NCBI GenBank assembly: GCA_016937995.1
Contig: JAFGVM010000066.1
Span: 1-61,780, forward strand
Source: Candidatus Delongbacteria bacterium
Lineage (GTDB): Bacteria > UBA4055
DNA: 61,780 nt
Direction of reading: 5' to 3'
Both the position numbers and the translations under genes were made by a program. Positions within the stretch are counted from its first letter, which is position 1; each line of letters opens with the position of its first letter. Of this stretch, positions 17,523-49,679 are shown in pieces. The notes below the pieces were generated by a model. It made no database searches and was not told where the DNA came from. It worked only from the letters and a program-made list of their open reading frames with translations.

Positions 17523-20500
17523 TTACCATACCTCCAATGCCTCTGTCAACATGGCAAGCTGCTGTTCTTCTTTGAATCCGAGCTGCTGCATTGCACCTGA
17601 TGGACAAACTGCTGCACAACTTCCACAACCCTTACAAAGAGCAGAATTTATATGGGCAAATTCCTTACCGTTCCTCCAGAATAATTCAGGAGCACCGTAT
17701 GGACAAACAGAAACACACATTCCGCAACCGACACAGACATCAAGATCGACCTTAGCAATGTTAGCTTCTGCAATATATTCATCTGAACTGATGATCATAG
17801 TAGCTCTTTCCGCCGCAGCTTTGGCTTGAGAAATAGTTTCTTCCATTCCCTTTGGAGAATGTGCAAGACCTGCAAGGAAAACTCCTTCAGCAGAGAAATC
17901 AACCGGACGAAGTTTAACATGAGCTTCCATGAAGAAATTATCTTCATTCAGAGGTATCTTTAACATTTGTGAAAGTTCAACTGCATCCTCCTGTGGAACC
18001 ATAGCGGAAGAAAGTATCACTCTATCAGGATACATAATAGTATCCTTACACATGATATGATCTTTATATGTTGCCCTCAGACCTTTACTCTTAAGCATTT
18101 CCTGTTTTGCATCAATGTCTATTACAGGTTTGGTGTCAATATCGTACCTAACAAAAACAACTCCAAGATCTCTGGCTTCTCTGTAGTATTTCTCACTGAA
18201 TCCGTAAGTCCTGATATCTCTGTATAGGATATGTATATTCATTTTAGGGTTCAATTCCTTTAATCGGATGGCATTTTTTATTGATTGAGTACAGCAAACC
18301 CTTGAACAATATGGCCTGTTCTCATCTCTTGAACCAACACACTGGACAAGAACAATATTTTTCATTTTCTTATATTCATTGATATTTTTCTCAAAATCCT
18401 GCTCAAATTCAAGCTGGGTAATTACATTTTCATTTTTGCCGTATAGATATTCTTCAGGTTTGGATTCATTTGCTCCGGTGGCAATTATAATTACGCCGTG
18501 GTCATATTTAATATCCTCATCCTCCCTGTTGAGATGTACAGTCGTTGTAAAGTTACCTACATATCCCGAAATATCTTTGATCTTTGCTTCTGTGTAGATA
18601 GTGATCAATTTATTATCTGCAACTTCATCTCTGAGTTCTGTCAGATAATCACCAACCTTTTTACCTTCAACATTCTCATCAAGTCTGTTAAGATTACCTC
18701 CGGTTCTGTCACTTTTTTCAATTATAGCAACTTCATAACCCTGATTTGCGATTGAAAGTGCGGAAGTTAAACCGGAAAGTCCTCCTCCAACGACAAGAGC
18801 TTTCTGTGTTACTCCAAGTGCTACAGAATGTAGAGGTTCAAGAAGTCTTCCTTTACTGACAGCAATTTTAGTAAGTCTTTTAGCTTTTTCAGTAGCAGCC
18901 GGATGATCATCTTTATGTACCCAGCTGCACTGGTTACGGATATTAGCCATGTCAAACAAGAACTTATTAAGACCAGCTTCTCTCATAGTTTCCTGGAAAA
19001 GTTCTTCATGGGTACTTGGAGAACAGGATGAAACAATTACCCTGTTAAGCTTATATTCTTTTATTATCTCTTTCATTTGTTCCTGAGTATCCTGTGAGCA
19101 GGTAAAAAGGTTATCGGATGCATATACTACATTAGGTAATGTTTTTGCAAATTCAACTACACTTTTTACATCAACAACACTACTGATATTTATACCGCAA
19201 TGACAAACGAATACACCAATTCTAGGTTTTTTACCGATCACATCTATTTCTTCAGGATATACTTTTTCGGTTATCTCTGTTCCTCTCACTTCAGCAAGTA
19301 TCTCAGCAGCATTTGCCACAGCTCCGGAAGCCTGCATTACTGTTTCAGGAATATCTTTTGGAGATACTGCAGGACCGCAGACAAAGATACCTGGTCTTGT
19401 AGTCTGGATAGGGGAGATACCGAAATTATCAATAAAATTATATTCATTTAATCTTACACCAAGTCTGTCCGACAATTCAATAGAAGTATTCTGTGGGTGA
19501 AGACCAATAGATAGAACTACCAGATCGAATTCCTCAATTCTGTTCTTACCGTCATCCTCTACATAATAAAGTTCAAGATTACCACTTTCTTCTATCTCTT
19601 TGATCTTTCCCACACGACCTCTAACAAATCTTACATTTGCATCTTTCGCTTTATCGTAATATTTATCAAAATCCTTACCGTATGCTCTAATATCCATGTA
19701 GAAGATAGTTGGTTCAACTGAGCTTACATGTTCTTTAGCTATAATAGCTTCTTTCATTGTGTACATACAGCAGACAGATGAACAATACGGCATGTCAGAG
19801 TCCTCTGTTCTTGACCCGACACACTGGATCCAAGCAATTTTTTTAGGTACTTTTCCGTCAGCAGGTCTTTGGAGATGACCTTCGTAAGGTCCGGAAGCAG
19901 CAAGAATTCTCTCGAACTGAATACTTGTTACAACATTTTTAAATCTGCCATAGCCATATTCATGCATTGCAGTCGGGTCATATTTCTCAGCTCCGGTTGC
20001 TACAATGATCGATCCAACATTAATTTCTTCTTCATGATCGATCATATCATGAACGATCGCTTCGGCTTCACATACAGTTACACATTCCATACATCCAGAA
20101 CAAATACCGCACTCAAGACATCTTTTAGCTTCTTCTCTTACTTCTTCTTCAGAGTAACCGAGTTCGTGTTCATCGAAATTCTTTATTCTTTCTTCAGCTT
20201 CCTGGAATCTCATCGGTTTTCTTTCCTGACGCATAACGAACTGCTGAGGTTCTTTTGCAGGGATCAGGTCCTTTTTTGCAACTCTTCCTTTTTCCATATC
20301 CTGACCTGTCAGGTATCTTTCTATAGAAATAGCAGCCTCATAAGCCTGACCTACAGCTTCAACAACTGAAGCCGGTCCCTGAACAACATCACCGCCTGCA
20401 AAAACATCAGGAATATTAGTTCCGAATGTCAATTCATTTGCAACAATAGTATTCCATGGTGTGGTTTTAACTTTACTGTCTTCTAATATTTTAAGGTCTG

Positions 20501-21983
20501 AAGTCTGAGAAACTGCAGCCATTACATTATCAAAATCTTCGACAAATTCATTTCCTGTCGGTTCAGGTCTTCTTCTACCGGAATCATCTCTTGCACCAAG
20601 TTTCATTTCAGAAAATTTAATAGATTTCATCTTGCCGTTCTCACCGATGATCTCGATAGGATTTGTAAGGAATTTAAATTTAATTCCCTCCTCTTCTGCT
20701 GCAACTATCTCATGCTTTTCTGCCGGCATTTCTCTTCTTGTTCTACGATATATTAAAGTAACATCAGCACCGAGTCTTTTAGCTGTTCTTGCACAGTCAA
20801 TAGCGGTGTTTCCACCACCTACAATAGCAACTTTTTTACCGATATGGACTTTTTCACCCCAGTTCACTTTCTTAAGGAAATCAATACCACCGAAAACACC
20901 TTCAAGGTCTTCACCTTTTATTCTAAGTGATTTACTTAGTTGCGCACCGATACCGACGAAGAATGCTTTATATCCTTTCAGTCTAAGTGCTTCAATATCC
21001 TCATGAGAATTTATCGGATGATTAACCTTGAGATCAACACCTTCTTTCAATATCTGCTCAATTTCCCAGTCAAGTTCATCTCTGGATAATCTATATGGAG
21101 GGATGCAAGAACGCATCATACCACCTGCTTTAGCATCTTTCTCAAAGATAGTTACCTGATAACCTTTCTGAGCAAGATAATACGCACAGGTCATACCTGC
21201 AGGACCTGCACCAATGACAGCAATTTTTTCTCTTGTCTTTGCAACAGGAGCTTCTTTCTTATCAAATTCATCCTGATGAGAATGTACATAGTCAGCAATG
21301 AATCTTTTTATTGATCTGATAGCCAAAGGATCGTCATAGTCACCTCTTCTACAGTCAAGCTCACAAGGATTGTGACAAACTCTACCACAAACAGAAGGGA
21401 AAGGATTATTTTGTCTGATAAGGTCATAGGCTTCTTTATATTTTCCTTGAGATACCAGAGCTATATACCCCTGAACATGGATTCCTGAAGGGCAGGATAT
21501 CTGACAAGGAGGTAATTCGTTTTTATCAATTACAAAGGCATTTGGAGATGCTTGAGGATAAGGCTTATATATAGCTGTTTTTTCAACAAGTTTTTCGTCA
21601 AATATTGAAACAGTGTTAATGGGGCAGATAGAAGCACATTCACCACATCCGGTACATTTATCAAGGTCGACAAATCGTGCTCTTTTATTAACTTTAACCT
21701 TGAAATTACCTGCTTCTCCATCTACAGAAACAAGATCGGTATTTGTTAAAAGGTCTATATTCAAATGTCTTCCGGCTTCAACGAGTTTTGGAGAGATCAC
21801 ACACATTGCACAGTCATTCGTAGGGAATGTCTTGTCAAGCTGAGCCATAGTACCACCAATAGCCGGTGTTTCTTCCATTAAATATACTTTAAAGCCTGAT
21901 CCTGCAAGATCAAGAGAGGATTGTATCCCTGCAATTCCTGCTCCGATCACTAGTACGGAACCTACTTTGTCTTTACTTTCCAT
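17523..21983 (-). CDS. hdrA: Large HdrA-like flavoprotein with inserted GltD/NfnB-type NAD(P)H oxidoreductase module (HdrL-like)
   Basis: LDKTFPTNDCAMC; CVGSR..CSSVCC; three FAD GxGxxG motifs plus the NAD(P)-binding GGGNTAIDCAR; PPCQISCP..CGRVC; C-terminal 2x[4Fe-4S]. Confidence 0.85.
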   Translation of the reverse strand: MESKDKVGSVLVIGAGIAGIQSSLDLAGSGFKVYLMEETPAIGGTMAQLDKTFPTNDCAMCVISPKLVEAGRHLNIDLLTNTDLVSVDGEAGNFKVKVNKRARFVDLDKCTGCGECASICPINTVSIFDEKLVEKTAIYKPYPQASPNAFVIDKNELPPCQISCPSGIHVQGYIALVSQGKYKEAYDLIRQNNPFPSVCGRVCHNPCELDCRRGDYDDPLAIRSIKRFIADYVHSHQDEFDKKEAPVAKTREKIAVIGAGPAGMTCAYYLAQKGYQVTIFEKDAKAGGMMRSCIPPYRLSRDELDWEIEQILKEGVDLKVNHPINSHEDIEALRLKGYKAFFVGIGAQLSKSLRIKGEDLEGVFGGIDFLKKVNWGEKVHIGKKVAIVGGGNTAIDCARTAKRLGADVTLIYRRTRREMPAEKHEIVAAEEEGIKFKFLTNPIEIIGENGKMKSIKFSEMKLGARDDSGRRRPEPTGNEFVEDFDNVMAAVSQTSDLKILEDSKVKTTPWNTIVANELTFGTNIPDVFAGGDVVQGPASVVEAVGQAYEAAISIERYLTGQDMEKGRVAKKDLIPAKEPQQFVMRQERKPMRFQEAEERIKNFDEHELGYSEEEVREEAKRCLECGICSGCMECVTVCEAEAIVHDMIDHEEEINVGSIIVATGAEKYDPTAMHEYGYGRFKNVVTSIQFERILAASGPYEGHLQRPADGKVPKKIAWIQCVGSRTEDSDMPYCSSVCCMYTMKEAIIAKEHVSSVEPTIFYMDIRAYGKDFDKYYDKAKDANVRFVRGRVGKIKEIEESGNLELYYVEDDGKNRIEEFDLVVLSIGLHPQNTSIELSDRLGVRLNEYNFIDNFGISPIQTTRPGIFVCGPAVSPKDIPETVMQASGAVANAAEILAEVRGTEITEKVYPEEIDVIGKKPRIGVFVCHCGINISSVVDVKSVVEFAKTLPNVVYASDNLFTCSQDTQEQMKEIIKEYKLNRVIVSSCSPSTHEELFQETMREAGLNKFLFDMANIRNQCSWVHKDDHPAATEKAKRLTKIAVSKGRLLEPLHSVALGVTQKALVVGGGLSGLTSALSIANQGYEVAIIEKSDRTGGNLNRLDENVEGKKVGDYLTELRDEVADNKLITIYTEAKIKDISGYVGNFTTTVHLNREDEDIKYDHGVIIIATGANESKPEEYLYGKNENVITQLEFEQDFEKNINEYKKMKNIVLVQCVGSRDENRPYCSRVCCTQSIKNAIRLKELNPKMNIHILYRDIRTYGFSEKYYREARDLGVVFVRYDIDTKPVIDIDAKQEMLKSKGLRATYKDHIMCKDTIMYPDRVILSSAMVPQEDAVELSQMLKIPLNEDNFFMEAHVKLRPVDFSAEGVFLAGLAHSPKGMEETISQAKAAAERATMIISSDEYIAEANIAKVDLDVCVGCGMCVSVCPYGAPELFWRNGKEFAHINSALCKGCGSCAAVCPSGAMQQLGFKEEQQLAMLTEALEVW

Positions 21984-22029
21984 GAAAAATTATCCTTTAT
22001 TTTTTTCGATCGTATGCGTTTCCAAATAC

Positions 22030-22053
22030 AGACGCATAGTGATGCGTCTCTAC
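22030..22053 (-). repeat. GTAG-type REP palindrome
   Basis: Minus strand GTAG-AGACGCAT-CACT-ATGCGTCT. Confidence 0.65.
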
Positions 22054-22109
22054 GGAATCGTTGTTATACGATCTGTGATTTCACTATATCAATTTTTATA
22101 AACCTTGAG

Positions 22110-23231
22110 CTACTTTATCAAAGAGTTTAATCTTGCTTGTGCTCTGGCTTTTTTTCTTATTGCAAATTCTTTAATTATATCTATCAAATAGTTACTTTCA
22201 ACTTTTTCGTGCATGCATTTATCATGCTTATTCTCAATATATCCTTTATAAAGAGCTTCTGAGTAAATTTCTCTACCCAGAGAATTTCTGATAAGTACCG
22301 TTGTAAATCCTTCGTCTGATCCAATGCCACCAACAGATATATCTGCATAATCGTTAGCAAAATCGTCACAGGCTATACAAGCCGGTCGTGCAATCTTTTC
22401 TATTACATCAAGCGGAACATGTATACAAATACCTGATTTCATATTCAATATCAATTTGTCTTTAATGTTTACCTTTACGATATCATCAATACAGATATTA
22501 TGTAACTTTGCAAATTCCTTTTTAGCAAGGTCTTCCAGTGTAAAACACTGTAAACAGAACAGACCTATAGTAAAGATCACCATATCTGAAGGAACTATGT
22601 TCATAAGCTGCATTTTTCGAATAGCTTTAATTTGACAAGGGGTGCCAACTAAAGCAAGTTTCTTCATATTCTTTTTGGCAGATTCCCGGATCACTTTTAT
22701 AACCGGAAAGCAAGATTTATATTCACTTCCTAATTTGTCCAGATGTAATGCTTCTGAATAATATGAACCGGCAGTTTCAAGCAATTCTTCTTTTGAAGTA
22801 GCTATTGTAGGACCATTACCACATGCTCCGATCCTTTTTGAAACGATCGCACCATCGATCTTGTTACTTTCAATCAAATAAGACAACAGCGAAGTTACTA
22901 CACCACCGTCTGTTGCTACCTTTTTAACATCTATATCAGTAGAACGGGCTGAAAAAACATCGATCCAATTTCCTATAGGAAATTTAGCATCGAATTTTTG
23001 CTTAAGTTCTTCCTCCAATCGTTTTGTCTGAGGGCAGATAAGGTAACAAATTCCGCCTTGCAGGCATTTTTCCTGGTCAGAATATTTCGGATAACCATCT
23101 TCACCAATTTCTAAAGCATTTATTCCATTAGCACTACAGAATGAAACACAACCTCCACAACGATTGCAAAGATCTTTGCCGATCACTTCTGTTAAAAGAT
23201 TATTGAAGCTAATACCGATATTCTTTTCCAC
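22110..23231 (-). CDS. FrhB/FdhB family (F420 hydrogenase beta-subunit-like) flavo-iron-sulfur protein
   Basis: CNRCGGCVSFC, ATDGGVVT, VGTPCQI, IGLFC, ACIACDDF, ADISVG. Confidence 0.88.
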   Translation of the reverse strand: MEKNIGISFNNLLTEVIGKDLCNRCGGCVSFCSANGINALEIGEDGYPKYSDQEKCLQGGICYLICPQTKRLEEELKQKFDAKFPIGNWIDVFSARSTDIDVKKVATDGGVVTSLLSYLIESNKIDGAIVSKRIGACGNGPTIATSKEELLETAGSYYSEALHLDKLGSEYKSCFPVIKVIRESAKKNMKKLALVGTPCQIKAIRKMQLMNIVPSDMVIFTIGLFCLQCFTLEDLAKKEFAKLHNICIDDIVKVNIKDKLILNMKSGICIHVPLDVIEKIARPACIACDDFANDYADISVGGIGSDEGFTTVLIRNSLGREIYSEALYKGYIENKHDKCMHEKVESNYLIDIIKEFAIRKKARAQARLNSLIK

Positions 23232-23303: not shown

Positions 23304-24161
23304 TTATTTGATAGGATTATCTTTTCCGACGTTCCACTCATAATAAGCACCATCATATACTTTTACATTTTTAAATCCTGCTACATCTGTTAAAGCCATG
23401 AATACGATACCAGCTCTCACACTTGAAGCACAATAAAGAATTATTTCTTTATCGGCAGTAATACCTGCAGATTTTGCAGCGGCAATGATCTCATCCTTAG
23501 ATTTTAAAACACCATCTTCTTTGAAAACATTTACATGGTCAAAATTAACTGCACCTTCAATGTGACCTTTTTTATTAATGTTAGCATCATCTTTTTCTTT
23601 ACCGTTGTATTCATCAGCGCTTCTAACATCAACAATAACAACCTTATCATTTTTCAGGTTGGCTTTAACATATTCTATATCCGCATAAATTGCTGAATTA
23701 ACAGCAGGTGTGAATGTTGCAGCTTCGATCTCAGTTGCTTTTCCTGTGATCGGTTTTCTTGCCTTTTTCCAGCCCTTAATATGTCCGTCAAGAATGTCGA
23801 CATCCTTAGCGCCCATATATTTAAGTATCCAGTATAATCTTCCGGCTGCTTTATTTGATCCTGTATCATAAATAATGATCTTTTTATCAGCACTAATTCC
23901 CTGCTCACCCAGGATCTTTGCGATCTCTGCTGCAGGTTTCAGCATACTCTTGATACCCTCGGTATTATATAAAGCAGCATGATCAATGTTAACAGCACCT
24001 TCAATATGTTTTTTGCTGTAATCCGCAACAGGTTTTGTTGAGACAATAATTGCTTTTCCGTCCTTAGAAAGCTTAGCAGCATCTTTTGCAGATATTATAC
24101 CTGCAAAAACAAATTGAACACTGATCAACAGTACTACGATTATTCCAATATATTTTTTCAT
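23304..24161 (-). CDS. Exported tandem-domain sulfurtransferase (TST/SseA-like rhodanese)
   Basis: Signal peptide; HIEGAV twice; inactive N-domain YDTG; active loop YCASSVR; VYDGAYYEW. Confidence 0.9.
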   Translation of the reverse strand: MKKYIGIIVVLLISVQFVFAGIISAKDAAKLSKDGKAIIVSTKPVADYSKKHIEGAVNIDHAALYNTEGIKSMLKPAAEIAKILGEQGISADKKIIIYDTGSNKAAGRLYWILKYMGAKDVDILDGHIKGWKKARKPITGKATEIEAATFTPAVNSAIYADIEYVKANLKNDKVVIVDVRSADEYNGKEKDDANINKKGHIEGAVNFDHVNVFKEDGVLKSKDEIIAAAKSAGITADKEIILYCASSVRAGIVFMALTDVAGFKNVKVYDGAYYEWNVGKDNPIK

Positions 24162-24177: not shown

Positions 24178-25227
24178 TTAAAACTTAACCTGTAATTGAA
24201 CAAGGATTTCGTCATTTTTCACTTCAACTTCTTCTGCTTTGTACAAATAGTTTATTTGTAATCTTGTCCAATCGTTAAAGAAGTAATTTAATCCCCAAGT
24301 TATTATACTTTGAGAATCTAGATCTTCATCAATGTCAGGATCAAAAGTTTCATATTTAATTACTGGTTGAAGATCCCATTCTGTCATATACATTGCCTGT
24401 AAAAAATATCCATCTCTTTGGATTGAACCTGTGTGGAACTCCACTTCTTCGCCACTTCAACCGCCGCCTGTTGTATAAGAACCTTCGTCTTTACCTTGAA
24501 TGTATTCAGCCTGTAATAAAAAATTATCATATTTGAATTCTAATTCTCCTCCAAAACGAGTTTTTTCATCATCTGGCTCGCCAGCAACAATAGGAGCAGA
24601 TGTTCCAAATTTATAACTACCACCAATACTGATCATATCATGTGGTGTTATTACTAACCTGCCAGTAAATGCTTTATTATTGTTGTCATCTAGGTCTCCA
24701 AGTTCGTTTCTTTTTGTCGCATTAGTGAGTGAAAGACCATATTTAAGGTATGTTCCATATTTCCCATTAATCATAATACCCATATCTCTATCAGGATATA
24801 CTAAGGTATTTACAACTGTAGATCTTTTAATCGTATGCAAAGATTGACATGGTGTGTTCATTTCAAGACCAAAAACAGATTTGAATCTACCTAACGAAAT
24901 TTTTGCATAAGGATCAAGTCTTGAATATGTTGCAAATCCATCAATCAAATAAGGGATTCCGTCTTCTGAAGCATATGGGCTAAGTTCCATTAAAAGGTAG
25001 TAACTAAAATCGTAAGGTATATTACCCACAACACCCAAACGAGCTCTGTTAAACGAAAAAGTTGTCAGATCTTCAACATTATTTTTGTACTGATGATATT
25101 CAAATTGTGATTGTAAATATCCAACGACACTAACACCTTCATCAGAAGAAGCTTCCATGCATTGTGAATATATTACTGAAGTTAACGATGCTACAATCAA
25201 AAAAGACAATAAAAATATTTTCTTCAT
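24178..25227 (-). CDS. OprO/P-like outer-membrane porin, 349 aa, predicted selenoprotein (Sec257 at TGA 24457-24459)
   Basis: Track ORFs 24457..25227 and 24178..24444 are in frame: SYTTGGG-TGA-SGEEVEFHTGSIQRDGY. The joined protein is a complete barrel ending QLQVKF, with a hairpin after the UGA. Confidence 0.8.
24423..24460 (-). promoter_or_regulatory. Putative bacterial SECIS of the porin
   Basis: Apical GUGG-AGUU-CCAC with loop 16 nt after UGA and G second in loop; basal UUGAA/UUCAA pairing. Confidence 0.5.
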
Positions 25228-25291: not shown

Positions 25292-26305
25292 TTATGGTGA
25301 AACTTCCAATGGAAGGTCAACAATAGCTGCTGCATCCCACTTATGTGTCTCAAGATCATCATATATCATTGAGTTTGCACCGTTTTTTAAACTAACAGCA
25401 TCAAATCCAAGCACATTAAGATAAGCAGTGATCATTGAAGAAGTTTGACCTGTCCAACAATACGTTACTATTTGCTTGCTAGGATCAAGATTAGTTATCT
25501 CCAAAGGATTTATTCTGTATGCGCCATCAATATTACCATAAAACTCTACATCAGTTGTTGTCCAGTAGTTGTTAATGAAATATTGAGTTGGATCTGCAAG
25601 AACTGTAGTAGCTGCGATACCTTTAAATCCACCGGCTAACATTGCATTAACTCTTTCGGCTAATATCTCAGCACCGTCCGTAGAAGCAACAGTTAAATCA
25701 AAATCAGGAAGATCAAAAACGATATTATCAGCGATATCGCCAGGTGCTGCTGTCCAATTAGGATCGTCCAGCTGAGAACATGAAGCAGACCAGCTATCAT
25801 ATTTTGTTATTATTGTATCTGCAACAGCATCCATTACATCAGTATGCCATCCACTCATTCCCCACATGATAGAGAAAGCATCTGAATATCCGGACAATCT
25901 TAAAGCAACCACCGCATGACATGCTGATTGTCCACTGTAGCAAACTACTGCAATAGTTTTATCTCCTGCGTTTGCAGCAGCAGTAACGACATCAGTAAAA
26001 GGAACATTTACCGCACTTGGAATATGTCCAGCAGCGTAAGCTGAAGCTGATCTGATATCCATGATGTAATAATCATTTAAAGGATCAGTGTCAGTCATGA
26101 TATCATTTACTGAACTTGCTGTTTTAATCCATGATGTAAGAACAGAAGTGATATCCATTCCATTGTCTTCCATATAATCCTGCATAATTTCGAATGCCGT
26201 TAGTGTAGGTACCGCAGGATCATCACTATCATCCTTACAACTTGTTAAGAAGATGCTCGTTAGTGCGAACATTACTACAAGTAACATTGTCCATTTCTTT
26301 TTCAT
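25292..26305 (-). CDS. Two-domain rhodanese lipoprotein
   Basis: Lipobox LTSC; GHIPSAVN; two active-site loops, CYSGQS and CWTGQT. Confidence 0.88.
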   Translation of the reverse strand: MKKKWTMLLVVMFALTSIFLTSCKDDSDDPAVPTLTAFEIMQDYMEDNGMDITSVLTSWIKTASSVNDIMTDTDPLNDYYIMDIRSASAYAAGHIPSAVNVPFTDVVTAAANAGDKTIAVVCYSGQSACHAVVALRLSGYSDAFSIMWGMSGWHTDVMDAVADTIITKYDSWSASCSQLDDPNWTAAPGDIADNIVFDLPDFDLTVASTDGAEILAERVNAMLAGGFKGIAATTVLADPTQYFINNYWTTTDVEFYGNIDGAYRINPLEITNLDPSKQIVTYCWTGQTSSMITAYLNVLGFDAVSLKNGANSMIYDDLETHKWDAAAIVDLPLEVSP

Positions 26306-26476: not shown

Positions 26477-27023
26477 AGCCTCAACCACCTTCGTCGACTT
26501 CTTCTTCCTCGACGTCAGGAGCTGAAGGATCGAGCCATTTTTTGTAACCGCCTTTTAGGCTCTTTACATTTTTATAACCCATTTTCATCAGAGTATGAGC
26601 CGCAAGTGCAGCTCTTCCGCCTGATAAACAATAAACTACTATTTCCTCATCTTTTTCAGGCATATCGACCATCAGATCATCATTCCAGAACTTCTTGTTG
26701 TCGATCTTAAATTCAAGAAAACCTCTTGGAACGTTCACAGTAAATGCTTCAGGATAAGGGAATTCATCAGTTTCTTCATCAGCCTGATTGATAAAACCTT
26801 CGTCAAATTCTGAAGGTTCTCTTACATCGATGACCAAACGGAGCTCTTTGTTATCAAGTTTTGCCTTGAAATCCTCGTAAGATATCTCTGTAATATCCTT
26901 CTTAGCTTCCTGAACCATTTGCTTATTAGATGGATAAACACCATTCTCAGCAAAACCGCTTCCGCACCCAACTACAAAAAGGAGTGCTGAAAGCAATGCA
27001 GATAAATAAACAAGTCTTTTCAT
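26475..27023 (-). CDS. Single-domain rhodanese lipoprotein, 182 aa, predicted selenoprotein ending GG-U-G
   Basis: Start MKRLVYL at 27023, lipobox VVGC, active loop CLSGGR; 3' end GGT GGT TGA GGC TAG followed by a hairpin. Confidence 0.8.
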
Positions 27024-27039
27024 CTTATTCTCCTTTAAG

Positions 27040-28251
27040 TTATAGAGCGGAAAATTTTCCGGTCTTCTCATTCCATTTTACGAATATATATGCCAGTAGT
27101 ATGAATCCAAGAACCATTAACACAGATCCTGTATAACCTAAATAATCAGGTAAGAAGATCTTCTGAGATTCAGGTAGAAAACTTTCAAATACAGGAACAA
27201 TGAAAACCTTTGATACAGGTGCCATAACAGTAAAACCAAGTATAGACATCCATAGCTTTAGATGACCTTCACCGGCTCTCCATAAAGTACCGATCGCACA
27301 TCCACCTGCTATAGTCATTCCAAGTCCGAATATCGTACCACCGATAAGTGCCTTTGACCAGAAACTAGGATAAACAGCCTTCATTTCGATAGCTCTAACA
27401 GCTGTCTCAGCTACATTTCCCACACCGAAATACTTTAGTACCGTAAATCCGAAGATAAGTATAAGTAAACCGATCATGATAGCTACCGGAGCAGAGGATT
27501 CACCTGTCATAAAAGGTTCTCTGAATGCTCTGACGATACAGTATCTTGATCTCTGCAGGATAAATCCAAGAGTCAGACCTATGATAATGTGCCATCCGAG
27601 TATCTTCATAGCCGCAGAACCCTCTGCATTATAACCGCTGATAACATAGATAATTCCAGCTAGTAAAATCCAGGCAAGCCATCTCTGCCATCCCATGCCT
27701 TCTTTAGTTCCAGGCAAGAAAGTATATGACTTACCCATACTTACGTTTGGAAATGCTTCCATTTCCCAGAGGATATATTTCATCGCAAGAAAAGTACCGA
27801 TCAAAAATCCAGCAGTCAAAAATAATGCTCCGCCTGATAAAGCCGGAACACCAGTGAAGAATCCACCTGTAGTACAGCCAACACCGACCATTGATCCTAT
27901 ACCCATTAAAGCGCCACCTATCAAACCTTTAACAAGTTCTCCCTTAGGTGCTATCTTGATGCTAAATTCCTTTGAGAAAAGAGAAGATACAAACGCTCCA
28001 AGTACGATCATGATATTGAGAATAGCGACAGTGTGCATATTGATCGCTGTTGAAGTTCCTAGACTATCTACTCCCATAGACCCGAAAAGATTCTGACCGA
28101 TATTTAAATATCCTCCGCTTCCTCCCCAGGGATACTTAATTACAAAAAGCAGAATATTGAGAATAGCAAGAAGAACACCACCGAACCACATTGGCCAGCT
28201 TTTTGCAAAGATACTGTCATATAATTCTCTTAATATACCTTTTTTAAACAC
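27040..28251 (-). CDS. yeeE: YeeE/YedE (TsuA-like) thiosulfate/sulfur-compound transporter
   Basis: Multi-TM; GVGCTTG, QRSRYC, GMTIAGGCAIG; follows tusA/yeeD. Confidence 0.88.
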   Translation of the reverse strand: MFKKGILRELYDSIFAKSWPMWFGGVLLAILNILLFVIKYPWGGSGGYLNIGQNLFGSMGVDSLGTSTAINMHTVAILNIMIVLGAFVSSLFSKEFSIKIAPKGELVKGLIGGALMGIGSMVGVGCTTGGFFTGVPALSGGALFLTAGFLIGTFLAMKYILWEMEAFPNVSMGKSYTFLPGTKEGMGWQRWLAWILLAGIIYVISGYNAEGSAAMKILGWHIIIGLTLGFILQRSRYCIVRAFREPFMTGESSAPVAIMIGLLILIFGFTVLKYFGVGNVAETAVRAIEMKAVYPSFWSKALIGGTIFGLGMTIAGGCAIGTLWRAGEGHLKLWMSILGFTVMAPVSKVFIVPVFESFLPESQKIFLPDYLGYTGSVLMVLGFILLAYIFVKWNEKTGKFSAL

Positions 28252-28263
28252 GGTATACTCCTA

Positions 28264-28491
28264 TTATTTCTTTTTGATGTAGAATTTAGTTTCACCATCT
28301 AATTCTTCCATTGACAGGAATTCATTACCTGTTTTCTCGCACCATGCAGGAACATCTGTCTTTGAGCCGGGATCTGTTCCGATCATTTCAAGAACCTGTC
28401 CTGCTTCCATGCCTTTAATTGCCTTGCTAAGCTTAATGATAGGCATTGGGCATGATAACCCTTTACAATCCAAACTTTGATCAAAATTCAT
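28264..28491 (-). CDS. tusA: TusA/YeeD family sulfur carrier
   Basis: LDCKGLSCPMP, TDPGSKTDVPAWC. Confidence 0.92.
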   Translation of the reverse strand: MNFDQSLDCKGLSCPMPIIKLSKAIKGMEAGQVLEMIGTDPGSKTDVPAWCEKTGNEFLSMEELDGETKFYIKKK

Positions 28492-28583: not shown

Positions 28584-29060
28584 TTATTTTTTCCATGTAA
28601 CTTTTAATTCTTTTTCTATCATTTCTTTTACCTTCTTCTCATGATCGCCTTCTGGATGTAATTTCTGATTAATGATCTCACATCGAAGCTCCTGAACGAA
28701 TTTATCAAGTTCTTTAGCATCTTTGTATTGTTCCTTAGGAACATACCCTTCTTTTATTGCCATACCTCTCAGAACATCAAGAACATCTGAAAATTTTACT
28801 CCCTGAGGGCAAAGTGCGTAGCATGTATAACACCTTGAGCACATCCAAAGAATATCAGAAGACAATACTTCCTTTTTCATTCCAAGGATACACATTCTGA
28901 TGATCTTTCTGGGATCATAATCATCATTTACTTCTGCTACCGGACATGCAGCAGTACATGTACCACAGGTAAAACATCTCTGAATATGTTCAGCTCCGGG
29001 CTGAGCAGCGATCTCATTTTTGAAATTCGCATCCATTTCGCTTAAAATAATTTTATCCAT
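28584..29060 (-). CDS. hdrC: Heterodisulfide reductase subunit C-like
   Basis: CFTCGTCTAACP, PRKIIR, LWMCSRCYTCYALCPQGV. Confidence 0.9.
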   Translation of the reverse strand: MDKIILSEMDANFKNEIAAQPGAEHIQRCFTCGTCTAACPVAEVNDDYDPRKIIRMCILGMKKEVLSSDILWMCSRCYTCYALCPQGVKFSDVLDVLRGMAIKEGYVPKEQYKDAKELDKFVQELRCEIINQKLHPEGDHEKKVKEMIEKELKVTWKK

Positions 29061-29101
29061 TTTCTATATCCCTTTAATCTTTTTTATTTTTAATTCGCAG
29101 T

Positions 29102-29127
29102 GGGAAGGCGTAGGAGCCTTCCCCTAC
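29102..29127 (-). repeat. GTAG-type REP palindrome
   Basis: Minus strand GTAG-GGGAAGGC-TCCTAC-GCCTTCCC. Confidence 0.6.
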
Positions 29128-29147
29128 GGATATCGATCTATTTTAAT

Positions 29148-29212
29148 TGTCATCCTCGTGCTCCGACACGGGGATCTATTTCTAGATTACCGGATCAAGT
29201 CCGATAATGACA
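29148..29212. repeat. Short palindromic element with TGTCAT...ATGACA ends (RPE/dRS3-like)
   Basis: Terminal inverted repeat enclosing two hairpins (ATCCTCGTG/CACGGGGAT; CGGA-TCAAG-TCCG). Confidence 0.55.
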
Positions 29213-29218
29213 GTTTAT

Positions 29219-30046
29219 TTAAAACGCATCCGGTATGCTTTTAAGTTCTTCAAATGAGAACACAGGACCATCGATACAAACATACTTTGAACCGATACCG
29301 CATCTTCCGCATTTACCGATACCGCATTTCATTCTTCTTTCAAGAGATGTGTATATCCTTGTATCATCAAATCCAAGTTCTTTCAATACCGGCAATGTGA
29401 ACTTGATCATAATAGGAGGACCACAAACGATAGCCCATGCGCTTGGATCAGGAGATACTTCTTTAGTGATCGTAGGTACAAATCCTGTATGTTTTGCCCA
29501 TCCTTCAACAGGGGTGTCAATAGTTAAATGAAGTGTTAGATCATCTCTTTTGTCCCATTCTGCCAATTCTTCTTTATATATCAATAGATCAGGATTTCTT
29601 GCACCGTAAATAACAGTGATATCTCCATAATCCTTTCTATTCTCAAGCATATAAATAAGCATAGATCTTAACGTTGTGAACGCAAATCCTCCACCGATGA
29701 TAACGACATCTTTACCTTTTAGTTTTTCAAGTGGATACCAGTTCCCCAAAGGACCACGAATACCGACAATATCACCAACATTCAGATAATGGATCTCATT
29801 TGTAACAGACCCTGTTCTGTTGACTGTGAACTTCAGAATTCCCTCTTCAGTAGGTGAAGAAGCTATGCCAAAAGGTGATTCACCCTTGCCAAGAATAGAA
29901 AATTCACAGAATTGACCGGGCATATAATCAAATTTGTCTTCCTCATTTACAAATGAGAGATCAAAAGTACGAAGTGAACCGTCAGGGTTCTCGGATAATA
30001 TTTTCTCAACTTTCATCGGTATCGGTATGTACGTATTATTACACAT
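29219..30046 (-). CDS. flxA: FlxA (AsrB/PyrK-like FAD/NAD-binding, 2Fe-2S)
   Basis: PGQF, GIRGPLGN, IGGGFAF, CGPPIM, MKCGIGKCGRC...VCIDGPVF; hdrA-flxDCBA order. Confidence 0.85.
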   Translation of the reverse strand: MCNNTYIPIPMKVEKILSENPDGSLRTFDLSFVNEEDKFDYMPGQFCEFSILGKGESPFGIASSPTEEGILKFTVNRTGSVTNEIHYLNVGDIVGIRGPLGNWYPLEKLKGKDVVIIGGGFAFTTLRSMLIYMLENRKDYGDITVIYGARNPDLLIYKEELAEWDKRDDLTLHLTIDTPVEGWAKHTGFVPTITKEVSPDPSAWAIVCGPPIMIKFTLPVLKELGFDDTRIYTSLERRMKCGIGKCGRCGIGSKYVCIDGPVFSFEELKSIPDAF

Positions 30047-30063
30047 CTATAGTTTCCTTAAAT

Positions 30064-31095
30064 TTAGTATTCTAATACTTTTTTAATGACTTCTCTGATA
30101 TCAAGATTGACGGGACAAACACTTACACATCTTCCGCAACCTGTACAAAGATCAACCTGATAATTGTCCCTGAAGTAATTGTATTTATGCATTATTCTCT
30201 GTCTGACTCTCTGAACAGCTACACCCCTCGGGTTATGTCCCGAAGCCTCTTTTGTAAATAACTGGAACATACATGAATCCCAAAGTCTTATCCTGCTGCC
30301 TTTACCGTCCTTACCTTCATCATCAACATCGAAACAGTGACACGTTGGACAAACGAATGTACATGCTCCGCAATTGATGCATTTGGCAGATACTTCATCC
30401 CATACAGGTTCATCCCATATCTTTTTAAGTTTATCAAAGAGAGGTTTTGTGTCAATTTTGTCACCGAGATAAGATTCAGCAGTAGCTTTCAGTTCATCAA
30501 TTACTTTAACATCATTATCATCTGCTTTTTCTGCTTTGTCATAGCTATCAATGAATTTTTTACCCTTATCACTGATATCTTCCATGATATAATGGTCAGC
30601 AGTTTCAACTACAAAGACATCTGAACCGGTTTTATCAAAAGGATTTCCGTCGAACCAGTGACAGAAACAAGTTGAAAGCGGTTCATTACAAGCCAGGTTG
30701 AAGACTAAGCAGTTGTCATATTTCTGTTTCCAGTAAGGGTCTTTGAAATAGTCTTTTCCCGGATGCTGACGCGCATCACCGAAAACACTGTCAAGCATTT
30801 TCAAGCTCTTGGCATCACAATTTCTTATTGCCCAGATAGCAAAAGGTTTTTCATTTCTCTCAGGGACTTTCAAACCTTCTTTAGAATACTTAAACATTAC
30901 TTCTGCCTGAGGAAAAAATACTTCCTTTGCTGATTTCGATGTGTTATAAGCTGAATGATCTATCTCAAGAGCTGTTTCGATCTTTTTGAAAGTAGTCTTC
31001 TTCCCATGTTCAACAGGAGCATAGACAGAATAATCCCTGTTTAGAAAATCGATGAATTCATTCAGTTTTGTTTTTTTAATTTTAAGCATATACAC
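30064..31095 (-). CDS. flxB: FlxB (AsrA-like 4Fe-4S protein)
   Basis: CINCGACTFVCPTCHCF, RLWDSC, CTGCGRCVSVCP. Confidence 0.85.
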   Translation of the reverse strand: MYMLKIKKTKLNEFIDFLNRDYSVYAPVEHGKKTTFKKIETALEIDHSAYNTSKSAKEVFFPQAEVMFKYSKEGLKVPERNEKPFAIWAIRNCDAKSLKMLDSVFGDARQHPGKDYFKDPYWKQKYDNCLVFNLACNEPLSTCFCHWFDGNPFDKTGSDVFVVETADHYIMEDISDKGKKFIDSYDKAEKADDNDVKVIDELKATAESYLGDKIDTKPLFDKLKKIWDEPVWDEVSAKCINCGACTFVCPTCHCFDVDDEGKDGKGSRIRLWDSCMFQLFTKEASGHNPRGVAVQRVRQRIMHKYNYFRDNYQVDLCTGCGRCVSVCPVNLDIREVIKKVLEY

Positions 31096-31110
31096 CCTTA
31101 CTCTAACAGA

Positions 31111-32073
31111 TTACATTATAAAGTCTTGCTTTTCATTTTCGCAGAAAGATACCATAGCCGGTTTTTCATTAATGTCCAGACCTGCGGTATAGTTAAATCT
31201 TTCCTTTACTTCTTTTTCAACTTTTTTATTCATGATCCTTAGATCAAGGTCAACAGGGCATGCAGTTACGCATGAACCACAGTCAACACATCTTCCTGCA
31301 ATATGAAGATTCCTGATCAGGTGGAAAATAACCGAATCAGTTACTTCTGGTGTCTTACCTATCCATTGAGGGTCGTTCTGATCAACGAAGCATTCATTAC
31401 AATAGCACGATGGACATACGTTCCTACAAGCATAGCATCTGATACATTTTGAATATTCCTCTTCAATGTACTTCCATCTTTCTTCAGCAGTTTTGTCTTC
31501 GAAGTCAGTAACAACTTTAAATTCTTCAGCTACTTCAACTTCAACTCTAGGCTCACCAATGAAAGTGTCATATTCTTTAGCATCAGGATAACGGCAGTAG
31601 ATACATGAGTCACTTAGAACTTCTTTCAAAGGAACTTTTTTCTCAAAAGCTCTTCCTTTCAAAGTAACTTCATCACCTTCAACTTTTATATCAATAACTT
31701 CTTTTCCTTCAGTTATGGTCTGTATCTTTTTCTTTTCAAAAACACCGTTACAAGGAACACCTATGATATGAGCCTGCTCTCTTTTGATCTGATTTTCAAC
31801 AGTGTAAAGAACTACAGAACGGGCGTCACAACCTTTGGATACGATACCGATCTTTTTATAATCTTTCTTTAGTTTTTTACGATCTTTAGTCAAATAAACG
31901 GTTAGATTATTCCTGCATGTATTATCAAAGATAAGTTGGTCTGCATCCTCTGGTTTAGTAATAAAAATAGGAGTAGCAGTGTTCGGTAAAGAACCTTTTC
32001 CGTAACCGATAACAATATCTACAGTTTTATCTTCAAGGAGTTTTTTTACCTGAGATCTCAATTCGTTAATCAT
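31111..32073 (-). CDS. flxC: FlxC (FdhB-like 4Fe-4S protein)
   Basis: KGCDAR, CIRCYACRNVCPSCYC, HIAGRCVDCGSC. Confidence 0.8.
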   Translation of the reverse strand: MINELRSQVKKLLEDKTVDIVIGYGKGSLPNTATPIFITKPEDADQLIFDNTCRNNLTVYLTKDRKKLKKDYKKIGIVSKGCDARSVVLYTVENQIKREQAHIIGVPCNGVFEKKKIQTITEGKEVIDIKVEGDEVTLKGRAFEKKVPLKEVLSDSCIYCRYPDAKEYDTFIGEPRVEVEVAEEFKVVTDFEDKTAEERWKYIEEEYSKCIRCYACRNVCPSCYCNECFVDQNDPQWIGKTPEVTDSVIFHLIRNLHIAGRCVDCGSCVTACPVDLDLRIMNKKVEKEVKERFNYTAGLDINEKPAMVSFCENEKQDFIM

Positions 32074-32522
32074 TATTTAACTCCTTCTAATTCTTCAGTT
32101 TTCGCTCCATGCTTTACCATTCTTTTCGCAGGTCCAATCTTTTTGATATCTTCGGTGACCTTTGTAATGATATTTGCAAATTTTTCACCTTCTCCTGCTG
32201 AAACCCATGAAAATTGAACTCTTTCAGGTTCAATGCCTATGAACTCAAGGAGAGGTTTTATCGTAGAAAATCGTCTACGTGCGATGAAATTACCTGACAG
32301 GTAATGGCAGTCGCCCGGATGTCAACCAGAGACAAGAAGACCGTCGTATCCGCTTTGTAATGTCTTCATTATAAATAAAGGATCAACTCTACCTGAGCAA
32401 GGGATCCTGATAACTCTGACATTAGGTGGATACTGAATTCTTGAAACTCCTGCAAGATCTGCTCCCGCATACGAACACCAGTTGCACAGTATCGCGAGGA
32501 TCTTAGGTTGCCACTCTTTCAT
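32073..32522 (-). CDS. mvhD: MvhD/FlxD 2Fe-2S subunit, selenoprotein (Sec67 at TGA 32322-32324), 149 aa
   Basis: CNWCSY, CSGR, then SG-TGA-HPGDCHYLSGN...WVSAGEG; reads on to TAA overlapping the flxC ATG. Confidence 0.93.
32289..32305 (-). promoter_or_regulatory. Putative SECIS apical hairpin
   Basis: AUUACCU-GUC-AGGUAAU, stem starts 16 nt after UGA. Confidence 0.75.
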
Positions 32523-32544
32523 TTAAACTCCTAAAAATTTAATT

Positions 32545-35500
32545 TTAAAATATCTCCAGTTCTTCCGTCAATGTCAATGAATCAAACGTCGCAAATAACT
32601 GTTCATTTGTGAATCCTCTCAAATTCAATGCCCCGCAACGACAGGATGCCACACAAGCTCCACAACCTTTACAAAGTGCATCGTTAACAACAGCGATCTC
32701 TTTTTCAGGATCAACAGCTATAGCATTATAAGCACAGGCAAGTTCACAATACCCGCAACCAGTACATCTGGAATCGTTTACTTCAGTTATAGTACCTTCA
32801 GCCAGGATCTGTTTCTTGTTCAGGAATGTTAAAGCTCTACTTGCAGCAGCTTTTGCCTGCATAAGACTTTCATCCATATCTTTTGGTCCGTGTGCAAGTC
32901 CGGCAAGAAAAACACCATCAGTTGCAAAATCAACAGGTCTGAGTTTAGCGTGAGCTTCCAGGAATACTCCATCAGCATTCAAAGGAACTTTTAACATTCT
33001 TGCAAGATCGATATTGTCTTTCTTTGGGTCAACAGCTACAGAAAGAACCAGCATATCAGCTGTTATCTGTACTTCTTTATCCATAATAGGATCAAATACG
33101 GTAACATTTACACCACTGTCCGGATCCATCTCGTCAACAAGTGAAACTTCAGGTTTTTTCTCAGGAGAATAATGAACGAACATAGTACCGTTGTCTCTCA
33201 GCTCACTATAATATTTCTCTCTGAAACCATAAGTTCTCATATCACGGTAAACTATATATACATTAGTATTAGGCATCATTTCTTTGAGAACACCTGCATT
33301 TTTTACAGCTTTCGTACAACAAATACGACTACAATACATTTTACCTTCTTTTCTTGAACCTACACACTGGATCATAACCACTGTCTTAGGTTTCTTAGGG
33401 AATTTCTTTTTATGAAGCATTGATTCAAATTCCACCTGAGTAACGATAGTTGAAGTCTCTCCGTAAAGGTATTCTGAGGTTTCGTGTTCATCTGCACCGG
33501 TAGCGATCACTGTTACACCATGTTCAAAAGTATGCTCTTCTTTTGAATCTTTTTCGACCATTGTAGTTTTAAAATTACCAACATAACCATCGATCTTTTT
33601 GATATCAGTGTTCTTATATAAATGTATATGTTTATTCTTCTCTACTCTATCTATGTAATCAGCAAGATGTTTCTGTGGATCTTTTCCAAAGTTGAAATAT
33701 ATATTTTTCAGATTTCCACCAAGTGTTTTCTCTCTTTCCACCAAGAATACTTCATGACCCGCTGTTGCTAAAGTATCTGCAACGGCCATTCCTGCAAGCC
33801 CTCCTCCAACGACTAACGCTTTAGGATTGATATCAATAGGTAATCTTGCAAGAGGTTTCAATTCTTTAGCTTTGGCAGCTGCCATAGCCATAAGATCCTT
33901 TGCTTTCTCTGTTGCAAGTTCAGGTTCGTTCTGATGAGCCCATGAACACTGATCACGGATATTTGCCATTTCAAATAAATAAGGATTTAATCCGGCTTCA
34001 TTTATGGTCTCCCTAAATAAAGGTTCATGTGTACGAGGAGTACATGCGGCTACAACAACTCTGTTCAAATTATGTTCTTTTATTCTTTCTTTGATCGTAT
34101 TCATACAATCCGGAGAGCATGCATAAACAAGATCTTCAGAGTGTTCAACATTAGGAAGATCTCGAGCACTTTCAGCAACAGATTTTACATCTACTACACC
34201 GGCAATATTTATACCGCAATGACATACAAAAGTACCAATTCTGGGTCTTTCACCTTCAACTTTGATCTCTTTAGGTGCATCTTTAGCATCAGTAAGCTTC
34301 TGTCTTTCAAGTCTTAAGAATTTTGTAGCTTCAGCTACTGCACCTGATGCAGATACAACTGATTCGGGAATATCCTTTGGAGCGTTCATAGCTCCGCATA
34401 CGTAAATACCTTCTCTTGAAGTTGTTAAAGGAGTATAGGAGTCAGATCTACAAAAGCCGTATTCATTCAGTTTAATATCAAGTTTTTCAGCAAGTTCCGG
34501 CATTCCCTTTCTTGGTTGAAGACCAACTGCAAGAACTACCATATCAAAATCTTTGTACTGAATATCTCCATTTTCAAATACGTATTTTAATGTCAGGCTT
34601 CCGTCAGCATTTTCAGATATATCAGAAACTTTTGACTTGATGAACTCAACACCGTATTTGTTCTTTGCATTTTCATAATATTTGTCAAAATCTTTACCAA
34701 ATGCTCTGATATCCATATAGAAAATAGAAGATTTCAAACCTTTCATATGTTCAGTTGCAATTATAGCTTCTTTAATAGCGAACATACAGCAAGCTGATGA
34801 ACAATAGTTGTGACCTATGCTTTCGTCTCTTGATCCGACACACTGAATAAAAGCAATGCTCTTAGGTTCTTTATGATCATTGAATTTGGTTATATGACCA
34901 CCCATAGGTCCTGATGCAGATAACATTCTCTCAAATTCCAGAGATGTCACAACATTGCTGAATCTCTTGTAACCGAGATTTCCAAAGTGTATAGGATTAA
35001 AAGTATCAATACCTGTGGAAAGTATTACAGCTCCAACATTTAATTCTATTTTTCGATCTTTATCATCGTAGTTAATAGCACCGGCAGGGCAGACCTTTTC
35101 ACAGATCTTACAAACACCCTTGGTCAGGTAAAGACAGTTATTTTTGTCAATCGTATACTCAGCCGGGATACTCTGTAGAAAATATCTTGAAATAGCTCCT
35201 CTCTTTCTAAGCTGCATATCAAATTCATCAGCAACTTTTACAGGGCATTTCTCTTCACATAAACCACAGGAAACACATTTCTCAGGATCAACATATTTTG
35301 CTTCTTCCACTATCTTAGCTATAAAATCACCCGGTAAACCTTCAACTGATTCAACTTTTGATTTTATGTGTATGCTGATATTAGGATGACGGACAGCTTC
35401 ACTCATCTTAGGGGCAAGGATACACATTGAACAATCATTTGTTGGGAATGTCTTATCAAGCTGAGGCATCCTGCCTCCAATTGTAGCTGATTCTTCGACC

Positions 35501-35598: not shown

Positions 35599-35617
35599 AA
35601 ATTTTTTCCTTAGTATC

Positions 35618-36043: not shown

Positions 36044-36076
36044 TTTTTATTCCCCCTAATTTTCAATTGAGCGAAT

Positions 36077-38324: not shown

Positions 38325-38338
38325 ATTCTCCTTTATCT

Positions 38339-38459
38339 AGACTGTTGAAAAACTTCGTATTTCTTCGTCTGATTCAAATTTCTTAATCCGTCACTTAGGT
38401 CAATTAAGCTTCGAATACAAAATTTGATAATCCTTGAACTACTTGTTTTTGACCAGTCT
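38339..38459. mobile_element. Putative 121-bp MITE
   Basis: Terminal inverted repeats AGACTGTTGAAAAAC / GTTTTTGACCAGTCT (13/15 match); non-coding and fills the intergenic gap. Confidence 0.55.
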
Positions 38460-38476
38460 GTACTTTTTCAATAAAT

Positions 38477-40159: not shown

Positions 40160-40177
40160 TTTTATACCTTAATTATA

Positions 40178-49583: not shown

Positions 49584-49679
49584 GGGCTTGGATGGAGACC
49601 TGGTGGCTCCCGCGGACTTCAAATCCGTAAGCGAGGCATTGATACTGTCTTGGGTGAGTTCGATTCTCACACTAGCCCG
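49584..49679 (+). tRNA. selC: tRNA-Sec (anticodon UCA)
   Basis: GCGGA-CTTCAAA-TCCGT anticodon arm, TGGT D-loop, long variable arm, GTGAG-TTCGATT-CTCAC T-arm, G discriminator; CCA not encoded. Confidence 0.93.

Follow-up and report, generated by a model that had tools for sequence, protein, structure and literature searches.

A single in-frame TGA within an outer-membrane porin gene of Candidatus Delongbacteria bacterium very probably encodes selenocysteine (Sec). The gene lies on a contig of 61,780 nucleotides (nt) (GenBank assembly GCA_016937995.1, contig JAFGVM010000066.1), and we refer to the whole of this stretch as the window. Nearly all homologues of the porin carry either Cys or a TGA codon in the same column, and genes for two rhodaneses flank it. 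The Sec porin is strongly supported as a selenoprotein family that is new within a known porin family. At a probability of roughly 55%, we read it as an anion channel that passes sulfane sulfur to the rhodaneses by way of its Sec and Cys residues, and within this same joint estimate the best explanation for UGA257 is decoding by SelB and tRNA-Sec under the guidance of a small hairpin located 16 nt past the codon. An initial annotation of the window, made from the letters alone, had proposed such a porin.

A TGA codon in the place of cysteine

Under genetic code table 11 the porin appears as two open reading frames (ORFs) in one frame of the minus strand, 24457..25227 (256 aa, starting at ATG) and 24178..24444 (88 aa). 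The initial annotation had joined them through a single TGA into a 349-aa OprO/P-like porin, and the frame confirms this: when TGA is read as Sec (U), the stretch 25227..24178 translates into 349 residues with one U, at position 257, and the C-terminus ...LQVKF, and the product scores 58.2 bits with Pfam Porin_O_P (PF07396), for which the cut-off is 20.9. Around U257 the sequence reads ...DEGSYTTGGG-U-SGEEVEFHTGSIQRDGYFLQA..., with SGEEVEFHTG directly after the U. The expectation that a stop at the TGA would cost the protein its last strands and its terminal Phe also holds, given that strands 12–16 and the C-terminal Phe lie beyond the codon, and the two Cys residues pointed out earlier, in QCM (C23) and NTPCQSL (C127), are both present.

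Homologues were examined as proteins and as genomic loci. Among the best 120 of 655 database homologues with E ≤ 0.001, the aligned residue is Cys in 112, Trp in two and a gap in one, and five sequences end at GGG/GGS. One genome per species was also scanned, which gave 333 confirmed relatives, and in the best 80 of these 333 loci (the window not counted) the codon is TGT or TGC in 62 and TGA in 18. The GGG-C-G form is thus seen in 112/120 proteins and 62/80 loci with an aligned TGA in the remaining 18, the pattern that the initial annotation had named as support for Sec. A TGA at the same codon in 18 loci, with Cys in all the others, is more than chance would give, and on four independent lines of evidence (the Sec/Cys pair, a hairpin, the Sec machinery and conservation past the codon) we hold with high confidence that the TGA at 24459-24457 is decoded as genuine selenocysteine. 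The Sec reading also accounts for the truncation of these genes in public gene calls. The two Trp homologues, P0057 and P0117, may be cases of a TGA called as Trp under another code.

The TGA loci come from Cloacimonadota, Candidatus Delongbacteria, unnamed bins and one bin labelled Armatimonadota. A search of 40 other genomes found an orthologue of approximately 63% identity in three, all kin of the host and each with one TGA (these three belong to the 18 TGA loci), and the matches in the other 37 were at most 33% identical and without a stop. Across the 18 Sec orthologues the window porin is as well conserved beyond the TGA as before it, with 63% identity over residues 258–349 versus 58% over residues 32–256, a sign that selection acts on the portion past the codon.

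The host genome (2.75 Mb, 34.6% G+C) holds the machinery for Sec, namely SelA, SelB (above cut-off), SelD and one tRNA-Sec. Its SelD is itself a Sec-containing protein (AAG-U-AGK; contig C37:2048-2968, locus L010), and the hairpin of this selD gene (7 bp, with a GGA loop 17 nt past the UGA) has the same geometry as that of the porin. Genome-wide reassignment of TGA was considered and ruled out, given that TGA terminates 164 of 1,583 naive ORFs of at least 200 codons. Further selenoproteins in the window were sought as well: an in-frame HdrA-like ORF pair at 38477-41464 was rejected because the separating stops are not TGA, and the other window ORFs that can be extended by reading TGA as U are ordinary proteins with the TGA beyond their conserved part.

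The initial annotation had also noted a small hairpin with a G in its loop after the TGA, and it is found as GUGG-AGUU-CCAC at 24444-24433, with the loop starting 16 nt past the UGA. The upper stem pairs GUGG with CCAC (24444-24441 with 24436-24433) around the loop AGUU (24440-24437), and a lower stem pairs GAA with UUC (24450-24448 with 24427-24425). We applied a fixed rule of at least four contiguous pairs including at least two G-C, a loop of 3–6 nt that has a G among its first two positions, and a loop start 14–21 nt past the codon. Such a hairpin occurs in the window and in 17/18 TGA loci, versus 4/62 Cys loci; in the TGA-bearing sequences its loop reads [A/U]G[G/U]U or G[U/G]N and begins 16–18 nt past the UGA, and in L030, the sole TGA locus that lacks it, the stem is interrupted. 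For the 36 nt from +9 the folding energy is -10.8 ± 2.4 kcal/mol among TGA loci versus -4.6 ± 3.0 kcal/mol among Cys loci (Mann–Whitney p = 1.4e-8, which is overstated because the loci are related by kinship), and the G+C content of the same stretch differs too (0.53 versus 0.46).

Covariation points in the same direction. In an alignment of 19 sequences, the window and the 18 TGA loci, 78.4% of cells are paired versus 68.6% in shuffles, with none of 500 shuffles reaching the observed value and slid partners staying at or below 49.2%. Covariation scores 0.209 versus 0.087, compensatory switches occur at pair 23/32 (UA to AU in five sequences) and pair 25/30 (GC to CG in four), and RNAalifold recovers the same hairpin core. 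The model of the bacterial selenocysteine insertion sequence (bSECIS), as quoted in a 2026 review, describes a loop of 3–9 nt whose first two positions include a G, frequently with G or U next to it, a stem of at least 4 bp, a distance of 16–37 nt from the UGA and a minimum free energy of -7.5 kcal/mol or lower (PMC13188914). The window fits this geometry (4 bp, AGUU, 16 nt), as do 17/18 orthologues, and the energy is reached by 16/18 (mean -10.8; two at -7.1 and -7.5).

We placed 81 porins in a quick maximum-likelihood tree. All 19 Sec sequences belong to one group of 22 from Delongbacteria and Cloacimonadota, which has a support of 88 (SH-aLRT, the Shimodaira–Hasegawa-like approximate likelihood ratio test) and includes three Cys sequences; at least three Sec/Cys changes are required. 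Outside the Sec set of this tree, one Bacteroidales genome (G131; locus L108, G131:C53, codon at about position 3278 of the locus) has a TGA at the same codon in the context YGG-U-GG, together with SelA and SelD; the RNA downstream of this porin TGA forms no convincing hairpin. It could be an independent switch from Cys to Sec, a case with a different type of insertion sequence, or a broken gene.

A cysteine triad and its rhodanese partners

The AlphaFold2 model of the porin, built with 40 homologues, has 16 strands, a mean predicted local distance difference test score (pLDDT) of 85.8 and a predicted template modelling score (pTM) of 0.81. Foldseek ranks OprP (2o4v) first (template modelling score 0.74, 17% identity), followed by general porins and OprO. 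Ten conserved Arg were counted in the 40 homologues, with R61, R63, R103, R135, R147, R190 and R322 invariant and R224 and R271 nearly so. This is what one would look for in an OprP-like anion channel, and the porin is probably anion-selective.

Cys at positions 23, 127 and 257 is invariant in 40/40 aligned homologues. Among the 80 loci, C127 occurs in all and C23 in 79, the remaining one ending at a contig edge. For the wider family we took 150 representatives, dropped 44 shorter ones and used the 106 of at least 290 aa: 16 have all three Cys, 85 have none and five have one, and the representatives without the triad are also without the extended 'GGG-C-G' hairpin. This all-or-none occurrence of the triad marks a discrete subfamily of Porin_O_P.

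Connections between strands alternate between long and short in the model, as is usual for porins. Long porin loops face outward, and the third loop (L3) is the constriction loop in classical porins. In the model the loop with U257 (254-262) joins the two longest strands, 236-253 and 263-280, of 18 residues each. By porin topology U257 would therefore be the outward-facing tip of extracellular loop L6, the loop with C127 (117-146) would occupy the position of the L3 constriction loop, and C23 would lie on the periplasmic side at the mature N-terminus. We also attempted to infer bonded Cys pairs from patterns of loss, which failed as all three Cys are lost together.

The order of rhodanese lipoprotein and porin noted in the initial annotation is confirmed by RhdB, an LTSC lipoprotein encoded upstream of the porin (Table 1). 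The three-gene module of RhdB, porin and RhdA is conserved: RhdB is found in 79/80 loci and RhdA in 78/80, with strand and order the same and the misses falling at contig ends. Other members of the neighbourhood are less constant, with RhdC in 56, YeeE in 38, TusA in 33 and an HdrA-like gene in 32 of these loci.

Table 1 Coordinates of the porin gene, its elements and neighbouring features in the window.
Feature	Position	Strand	Description
Porin gene	24178..25227	-	349 codons + TAA, one in-frame TGA; OprO/P-type 16-strand barrel, tri-Cys subfamily
Sec257 codon TGA	24457..24459	-	Cys or TGA in this column among homologues; loop 254-262
Cys23 codon	25159..25161	-	QCM; second residue of predicted mature protein (...IYS|QC)
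Cys127 codon	24847..24849	-	NTPC(QSL), in 30-residue loop 117-146
Signal peptide, residues 1-21	25165..25227	-	From sequence; helix 2-15 in model; putative cleavage site
SECIS-like stem-loop	24425..24450	-	Conserved, covarying in 19 sequences
RhdB, two-domain rhodanese lipoprotein (LTSC, then KDDSDD)	25292..26305	-	Directly upstream of porin
RhdA, secreted tandem rhodanese (thiosulfate/3-mercaptopyruvate sulfurtransferase type)	23304..24161	-	16 nt downstream of porin
RhdC, single-domain rhodanese lipoprotein (VVGC)	26481..27071	-	
YeeE/YedE-family inner-membrane sulfur (or selenium) transporter	27040..28251	-	Sulf_transp 155 bits
TusA-type sulfur carrier	28264..28491	-	93.5 bits
FrhB-like protein + 1486-aa HdrA/GltD-like flavo-iron-sulfur fusion	17523..23231	-	Downstream of RhdA
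tRNA-Sec (anticodon TCA)	49584..49679	+	Only one detected in genome; same window, ~24 kb from porin

RhdB has a lipobox in 73 of the 77 recovered orthologue ORFs, and its C283 is invariant. After the lipidated Cys, a strict K-(D/E)2 is present in 32/73 and at least two acidic residues fall within five positions in 59/73. K-(D/E)2 is described as the surface-export signal of Bacteroidetes lipoproteins (PMC5080379), which suggests that this rhodanese may be displayed on the cell surface. In eight loci (L052, L087, L090–L092, L100, L104 and L107) the RhdB ORF has about twice the length (620–653 aa), as though it had undergone duplication or fusion. RhdA carries a plain signal peptide, and its best named relative is a 3-mercaptopyruvate/thiosulfate sulfurtransferase. 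A complex prediction for the Cys-form porin P0006 (locus L034) with its own RhdB returned a score of 0.00, which weighs neither way.

Beyond the three genes, the module runs on into YeeE, TusA and approximately 24 kb of HdrA-like, GltD/NfnB-like, FrhB-like and ferredoxin-like genes, all on the minus strand. The 1486-aa fusion of HdrA-like and GltD/NfnB-like parts lies at 17523-21983 (-), and a run of HdrA-like, FNR-like and ferredoxin-like genes at 28584-41464 (-). This HdrA-like/GltD-like cluster may be an electron-bifurcating complex that acts on imported sulfur, and the FrhB-like and HdrA/GltD-like products are possible cytoplasmic acceptors or reductases. The statement that cytochromes are missing here is borne out for the cluster genes scanned (17.5–41.5 kb), among which no cytochrome family was found. 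Elsewhere in the window, 9250-17328 (-) encodes a protein of 2692 aa that combines beta-helix, chitobiase C-terminal, Fn3-associated and Cleaved_Adhesin domains and is probably a giant protein of the cell surface, and 47791-49449 (-) encodes Lamin-tail domains with a CHU_C type IX secretion signal, which hints at a Bacteroidota-like type IX system.

Carriers of the module are found in Bacteroidota, Cloacimonadota, Delongbacteria, Marinimicrobia, KSB1, Zixibacteria, Calditrichota and Krumholzibacteriota. Among 101 sampled Bacteroidales genomes the module is present in 16, and two genomes with only a distant porin match (~1e-45) were scored as non-carriers. Cultured carriers of the Cys form include Ancylomarina, Draconibacterium and Maribellus. 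In many Bacteroidales genomes the match to SelD lies within open frames of approximately 730–760 aa, so that in this order SelD appears to be joined to a further large domain.

Proposed sulfur passage and competing explanations

That the module handles sulfane sulfur or thiosulfate is, in our judgement, somewhat better than an even bet, and that the Sec and Cys residues join covalently in the passage falls a little short of even. The porin and its two flanking rhodaneses would act as one unit, with RhdB perhaps exposed on the surface and RhdA soluble in the periplasm. Anionic sulfane-sulfur compounds (polysulfide, thiosulfate or sulfur derived from S0) would enter the channel, and the selenolate, or a thiolate in Cys forms, would attack the substrate and carry the sulfur as an Se-S(n) adduct. 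The sulfur would then be handed to periplasmic rhodaneses, via the channel Cys, directly, or both. In this organism the onward route could run from RhdA through RhdC, YeeE and TusA to the cytoplasmic Hdr-like enzymes. The most elaborate form of the idea is a three-station chalcogen relay, made up of the L6 selenolate, the constriction Cys and the Cys at the periplasmic mouth, in which a porin would transport by covalent chemistry; its source might be surface-exposed RhdB, or polysulfide or S0 directly, and its sink a periplasmic rhodanese. This relay is a tentative proposal, and we think it rather unlikely in full.

Covalent capture of sulfane sulfur would fit the context, in which rhodaneses accompany the porin in 78–79 of 80 loci, and it would fit the all-or-none triad. 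A selenolate is both a better nucleophile and a better leaving group than a thiolate. Sec in place of Cys has been catalogued in several sulfur carriers, among them rhodaneses, DsrE-like proteins, YeeE and a sulfide:quinone reductase (Table 1 of PMC13188914). The upgrade of Cys to Sec in two candidate phyla argues that the residue is chemically active rather than structural and marks it as the one to mutate. As cultured carriers of the Cys form exist, the relay idea is testable.

Several observations weigh against the sulfur-passing Sec porin. The window hairpin is the weakest of its family, with -6.0 to -7.0 kcal/mol over 36–48 nt falling short of the -7.5 kcal/mol that the bSECIS model requires, and the 76-nt stretch around it folds no better than shuffles (z = -0.42). 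All Sec sequences belong to one clade, and kinship inflates the across-locus statistics. Among public sequencing runs, two DNA runs of one study contain the stretch and no RNA run does. The placement of the three residues outside, at the constriction and in the periplasm comes from topology rules applied to predicted secondary structure, and which Cys bond or react cannot be read from sequence because the three are invariant together; a plain structural cross-link of the three is possible. The surface-export signal is defined for Bacteroidota, a lineage other than that of the host. The YeeE homologue scores slightly higher to a selenium-linked YedE model than to thiosulfate transporter models, and SelD is commoner in Bacteroidales genomes that carry the porin (11/16) than in non-carriers (34/85; Fisher two-sided p = 0.053, with kinship ignored), so that the module may have a role in selenium metabolism.

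The most substantial rival accepts the Sec and gives it a structural or regulatory task: U257 would join C127 or C23 in a selenylsulfide, which would staple L6 over the pore or gate it by redox state, and the rhodaneses would merely act on what diffuses through. Three invariant Cys that appear and vanish together are the pattern of a bonded set, and the low confidence at the L6 tip (pLDDT 67 over residues 251-260) would suit a mobile lid. However, catalogued Sec replaces reactive, mostly redox residues (section 7 of PMC13188914), an odd number of Cys leaves one free, and it is hard to explain why anaerobes would keep a costly Sec across two candidate phyla for a mere staple; we consider this account unlikely. 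Less probable still is a module for selenium (or tellurium), in which selenite or Se-S species would be taken up in the manner of ExtI/ExtH and passed to rhodaneses, a YedE-type transporter and SelD. The best NCBIfam matches do lean this way, being ExtI for the porin and YedE/FdhT 'selenium metabolism membrane protein' for YeeE, with ExtH second of 12 for RhdA (Pfam and NCBIfam release 20 were searched, with NCBIfam hits listed to E 0.01), but they lie far under their cut-offs, at 39.8 versus 150 bits for ExtI, 67.6 versus 200 for ExtH and 115.9 versus 350 for YedE/FdhT. ExtI has been linked to selenite and tellurite reduction (PMC5877670). SelD is found in 5/5 cultured carriers and is biased towards carriers among the 101 Bacteroidales genomes, but the p-value for that bias takes no account of kinship and 5/16 carriers are without SelD, which makes the module independent of selenium use. 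A stretch of 24 kb with Hdr-like, flavoprotein and Fe-S genes plus TusA also exceeds by far what the supply of a trace element would need.

Two further explanations appear very improbable. One takes the TGA as a true stop, through a pseudogene, a sequencing error or a split gene that yields a 256-residue fragment and perhaps an 88-residue piece. TGA is after all a normal stop in this genome, the window hairpin is insignificant when taken alone, and five homologues are truncated at this point in public gene calls. Such a fragment would, however, miss five strands and the terminal Phe, and the same in-frame codon is TGA in 18 other assemblies and one Bacteroidales genome, the downstream third is conserved at 63% and a covarying hairpin is present. 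The initial annotation had called for a check of the reads, and this goes only part of the way: a separately built contig from one public run spans the site with 0 differences, but it adds little because the run may be the source of this DNA. The other explanation, to which we likewise give very little weight, is that the triad is a binding site for thiophilic metals or metalloids such as arsenic-sulfur species, Cu or Hg, and that the module serves in detoxification or sensing. Rhodanese folds are also known from arsenate reductases. Several predicted selenoproteins of the catalogue bind metals (PMC13188914), but the scanned neighbours include no ars, mer or cop genes, and the conserved partners belong to sulfur-carrier families. 

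Relation to known porins, rhodaneses and selenoproteins

Like the window porin, OprP and OprO of Pseudomonas aeruginosa (2o4v, 4rjw) are 16-strand barrels of the Porin_O_P family with many invariant Arg in common. The window porin is 17% identical to OprP. It differs in having rhodaneses as neighbours instead of phosphate-uptake genes, and the tri-Cys signature and extended L6 'GGG-C/U-G' hairpin are missing from 85 of the 90 distant Porin_O_P representatives.

The analogy with ExtH–ExtI drawn in the initial annotation stands in part. In Geobacter sulfurreducens a porin gene is likewise reported to adjoin a rhodanese lipoprotein gene, with links to sulfur/selenium chemistry and to a selenoprotein, and these two families rank high among the NCBIfam matches. 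The scores are so far below the cut-offs that this is likeness and not membership, and in the match to ExtI (NF040900) the N-terminal half alone is covered. ExtI is reported to have one cysteine and no Sec (PMC5877670), whereas the window porin has Sec and two Cys. The Geobacter selenoprotein is reported to be a multihaem cytochrome (ExtKL/MccSep), whereas here it is the porin itself and the scanned cluster has no cytochromes. A Sec cytochrome beside ExtH/ExtI is reported as essential to Geobacter sulfur respiration (PMC13510729).

The pairing of families recurs in Deferribacter desulfuricans, in which DEFDS_0667/0668, a Porin_O_P protein and a rhodanese lipoprotein beside Psr/Phs, were proposed to be a polysulfide porin and a polysulfide-binding carrier (PMC2885270). 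We liken the two pairs by description; the partner there is a molybdopterin polysulfide reductase, versus YeeE–TusA and Hdr-like proteins here, and the passage of PMC2885270 on them makes no mention of Sec. OprO/P-like porins are also reported to adjoin sulfur enzymes in sulfur disproportionators. The kind of module formed by a porin and a rhodanese has thus been noted before and is one that was never characterised. Sud of Wolinella succinogenes is described as a rhodanese of the periplasm, binding sulfur from polysulfide and passing it to the enzyme that follows (PMC2885270). This is the role proposed for RhdA, and the likeness is functional, not by sequence. Sud works with a reductase, and we know of no dedicated Cys/Sec porin for it.

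Outer-membrane selenoproteins have been predicted from Sec/Cys pairs, namely the MtrB/PioB-type barrel of the GSU2204 family (NF041027) and the FCYXU TonB-dependent receptor (NF049945) (Table 1 of PMC13188914). They share with the window porin a Sec in an outer-membrane beta-barrel, but their barrel families are different and neither is a porin-type channel flanked by rhodaneses; both are missing among the NCBIfam matches of the porin (E up to 0.01). The Sec/tri-Cys porin family is without a model in NCBIfam release 20. The 2026 catalogue of 119 prokaryotic selenoprotein families (PMC13188914) lists no porin, the word being absent from that paper and from the deep-Sep paper alike, and we found no Sec-containing porin in the full-text literature, although supplementary tables of surveys may list one.

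How polysulfide, thiosulfate and S0 sulfur cross the outer membrane is stated to be unknown in recent work on sulfur respiration and disproportionation. The three-gene module of rhodanese lipoprotein, tri-Cys porin and secreted rhodanese offers a concrete and widespread candidate for this step. Porins are regarded as passive sieves. If the relay proves true, the porin described here would be the first 'reactive' outer-membrane channel and its Sec the first selenocysteine displayed on a bacterial surface.

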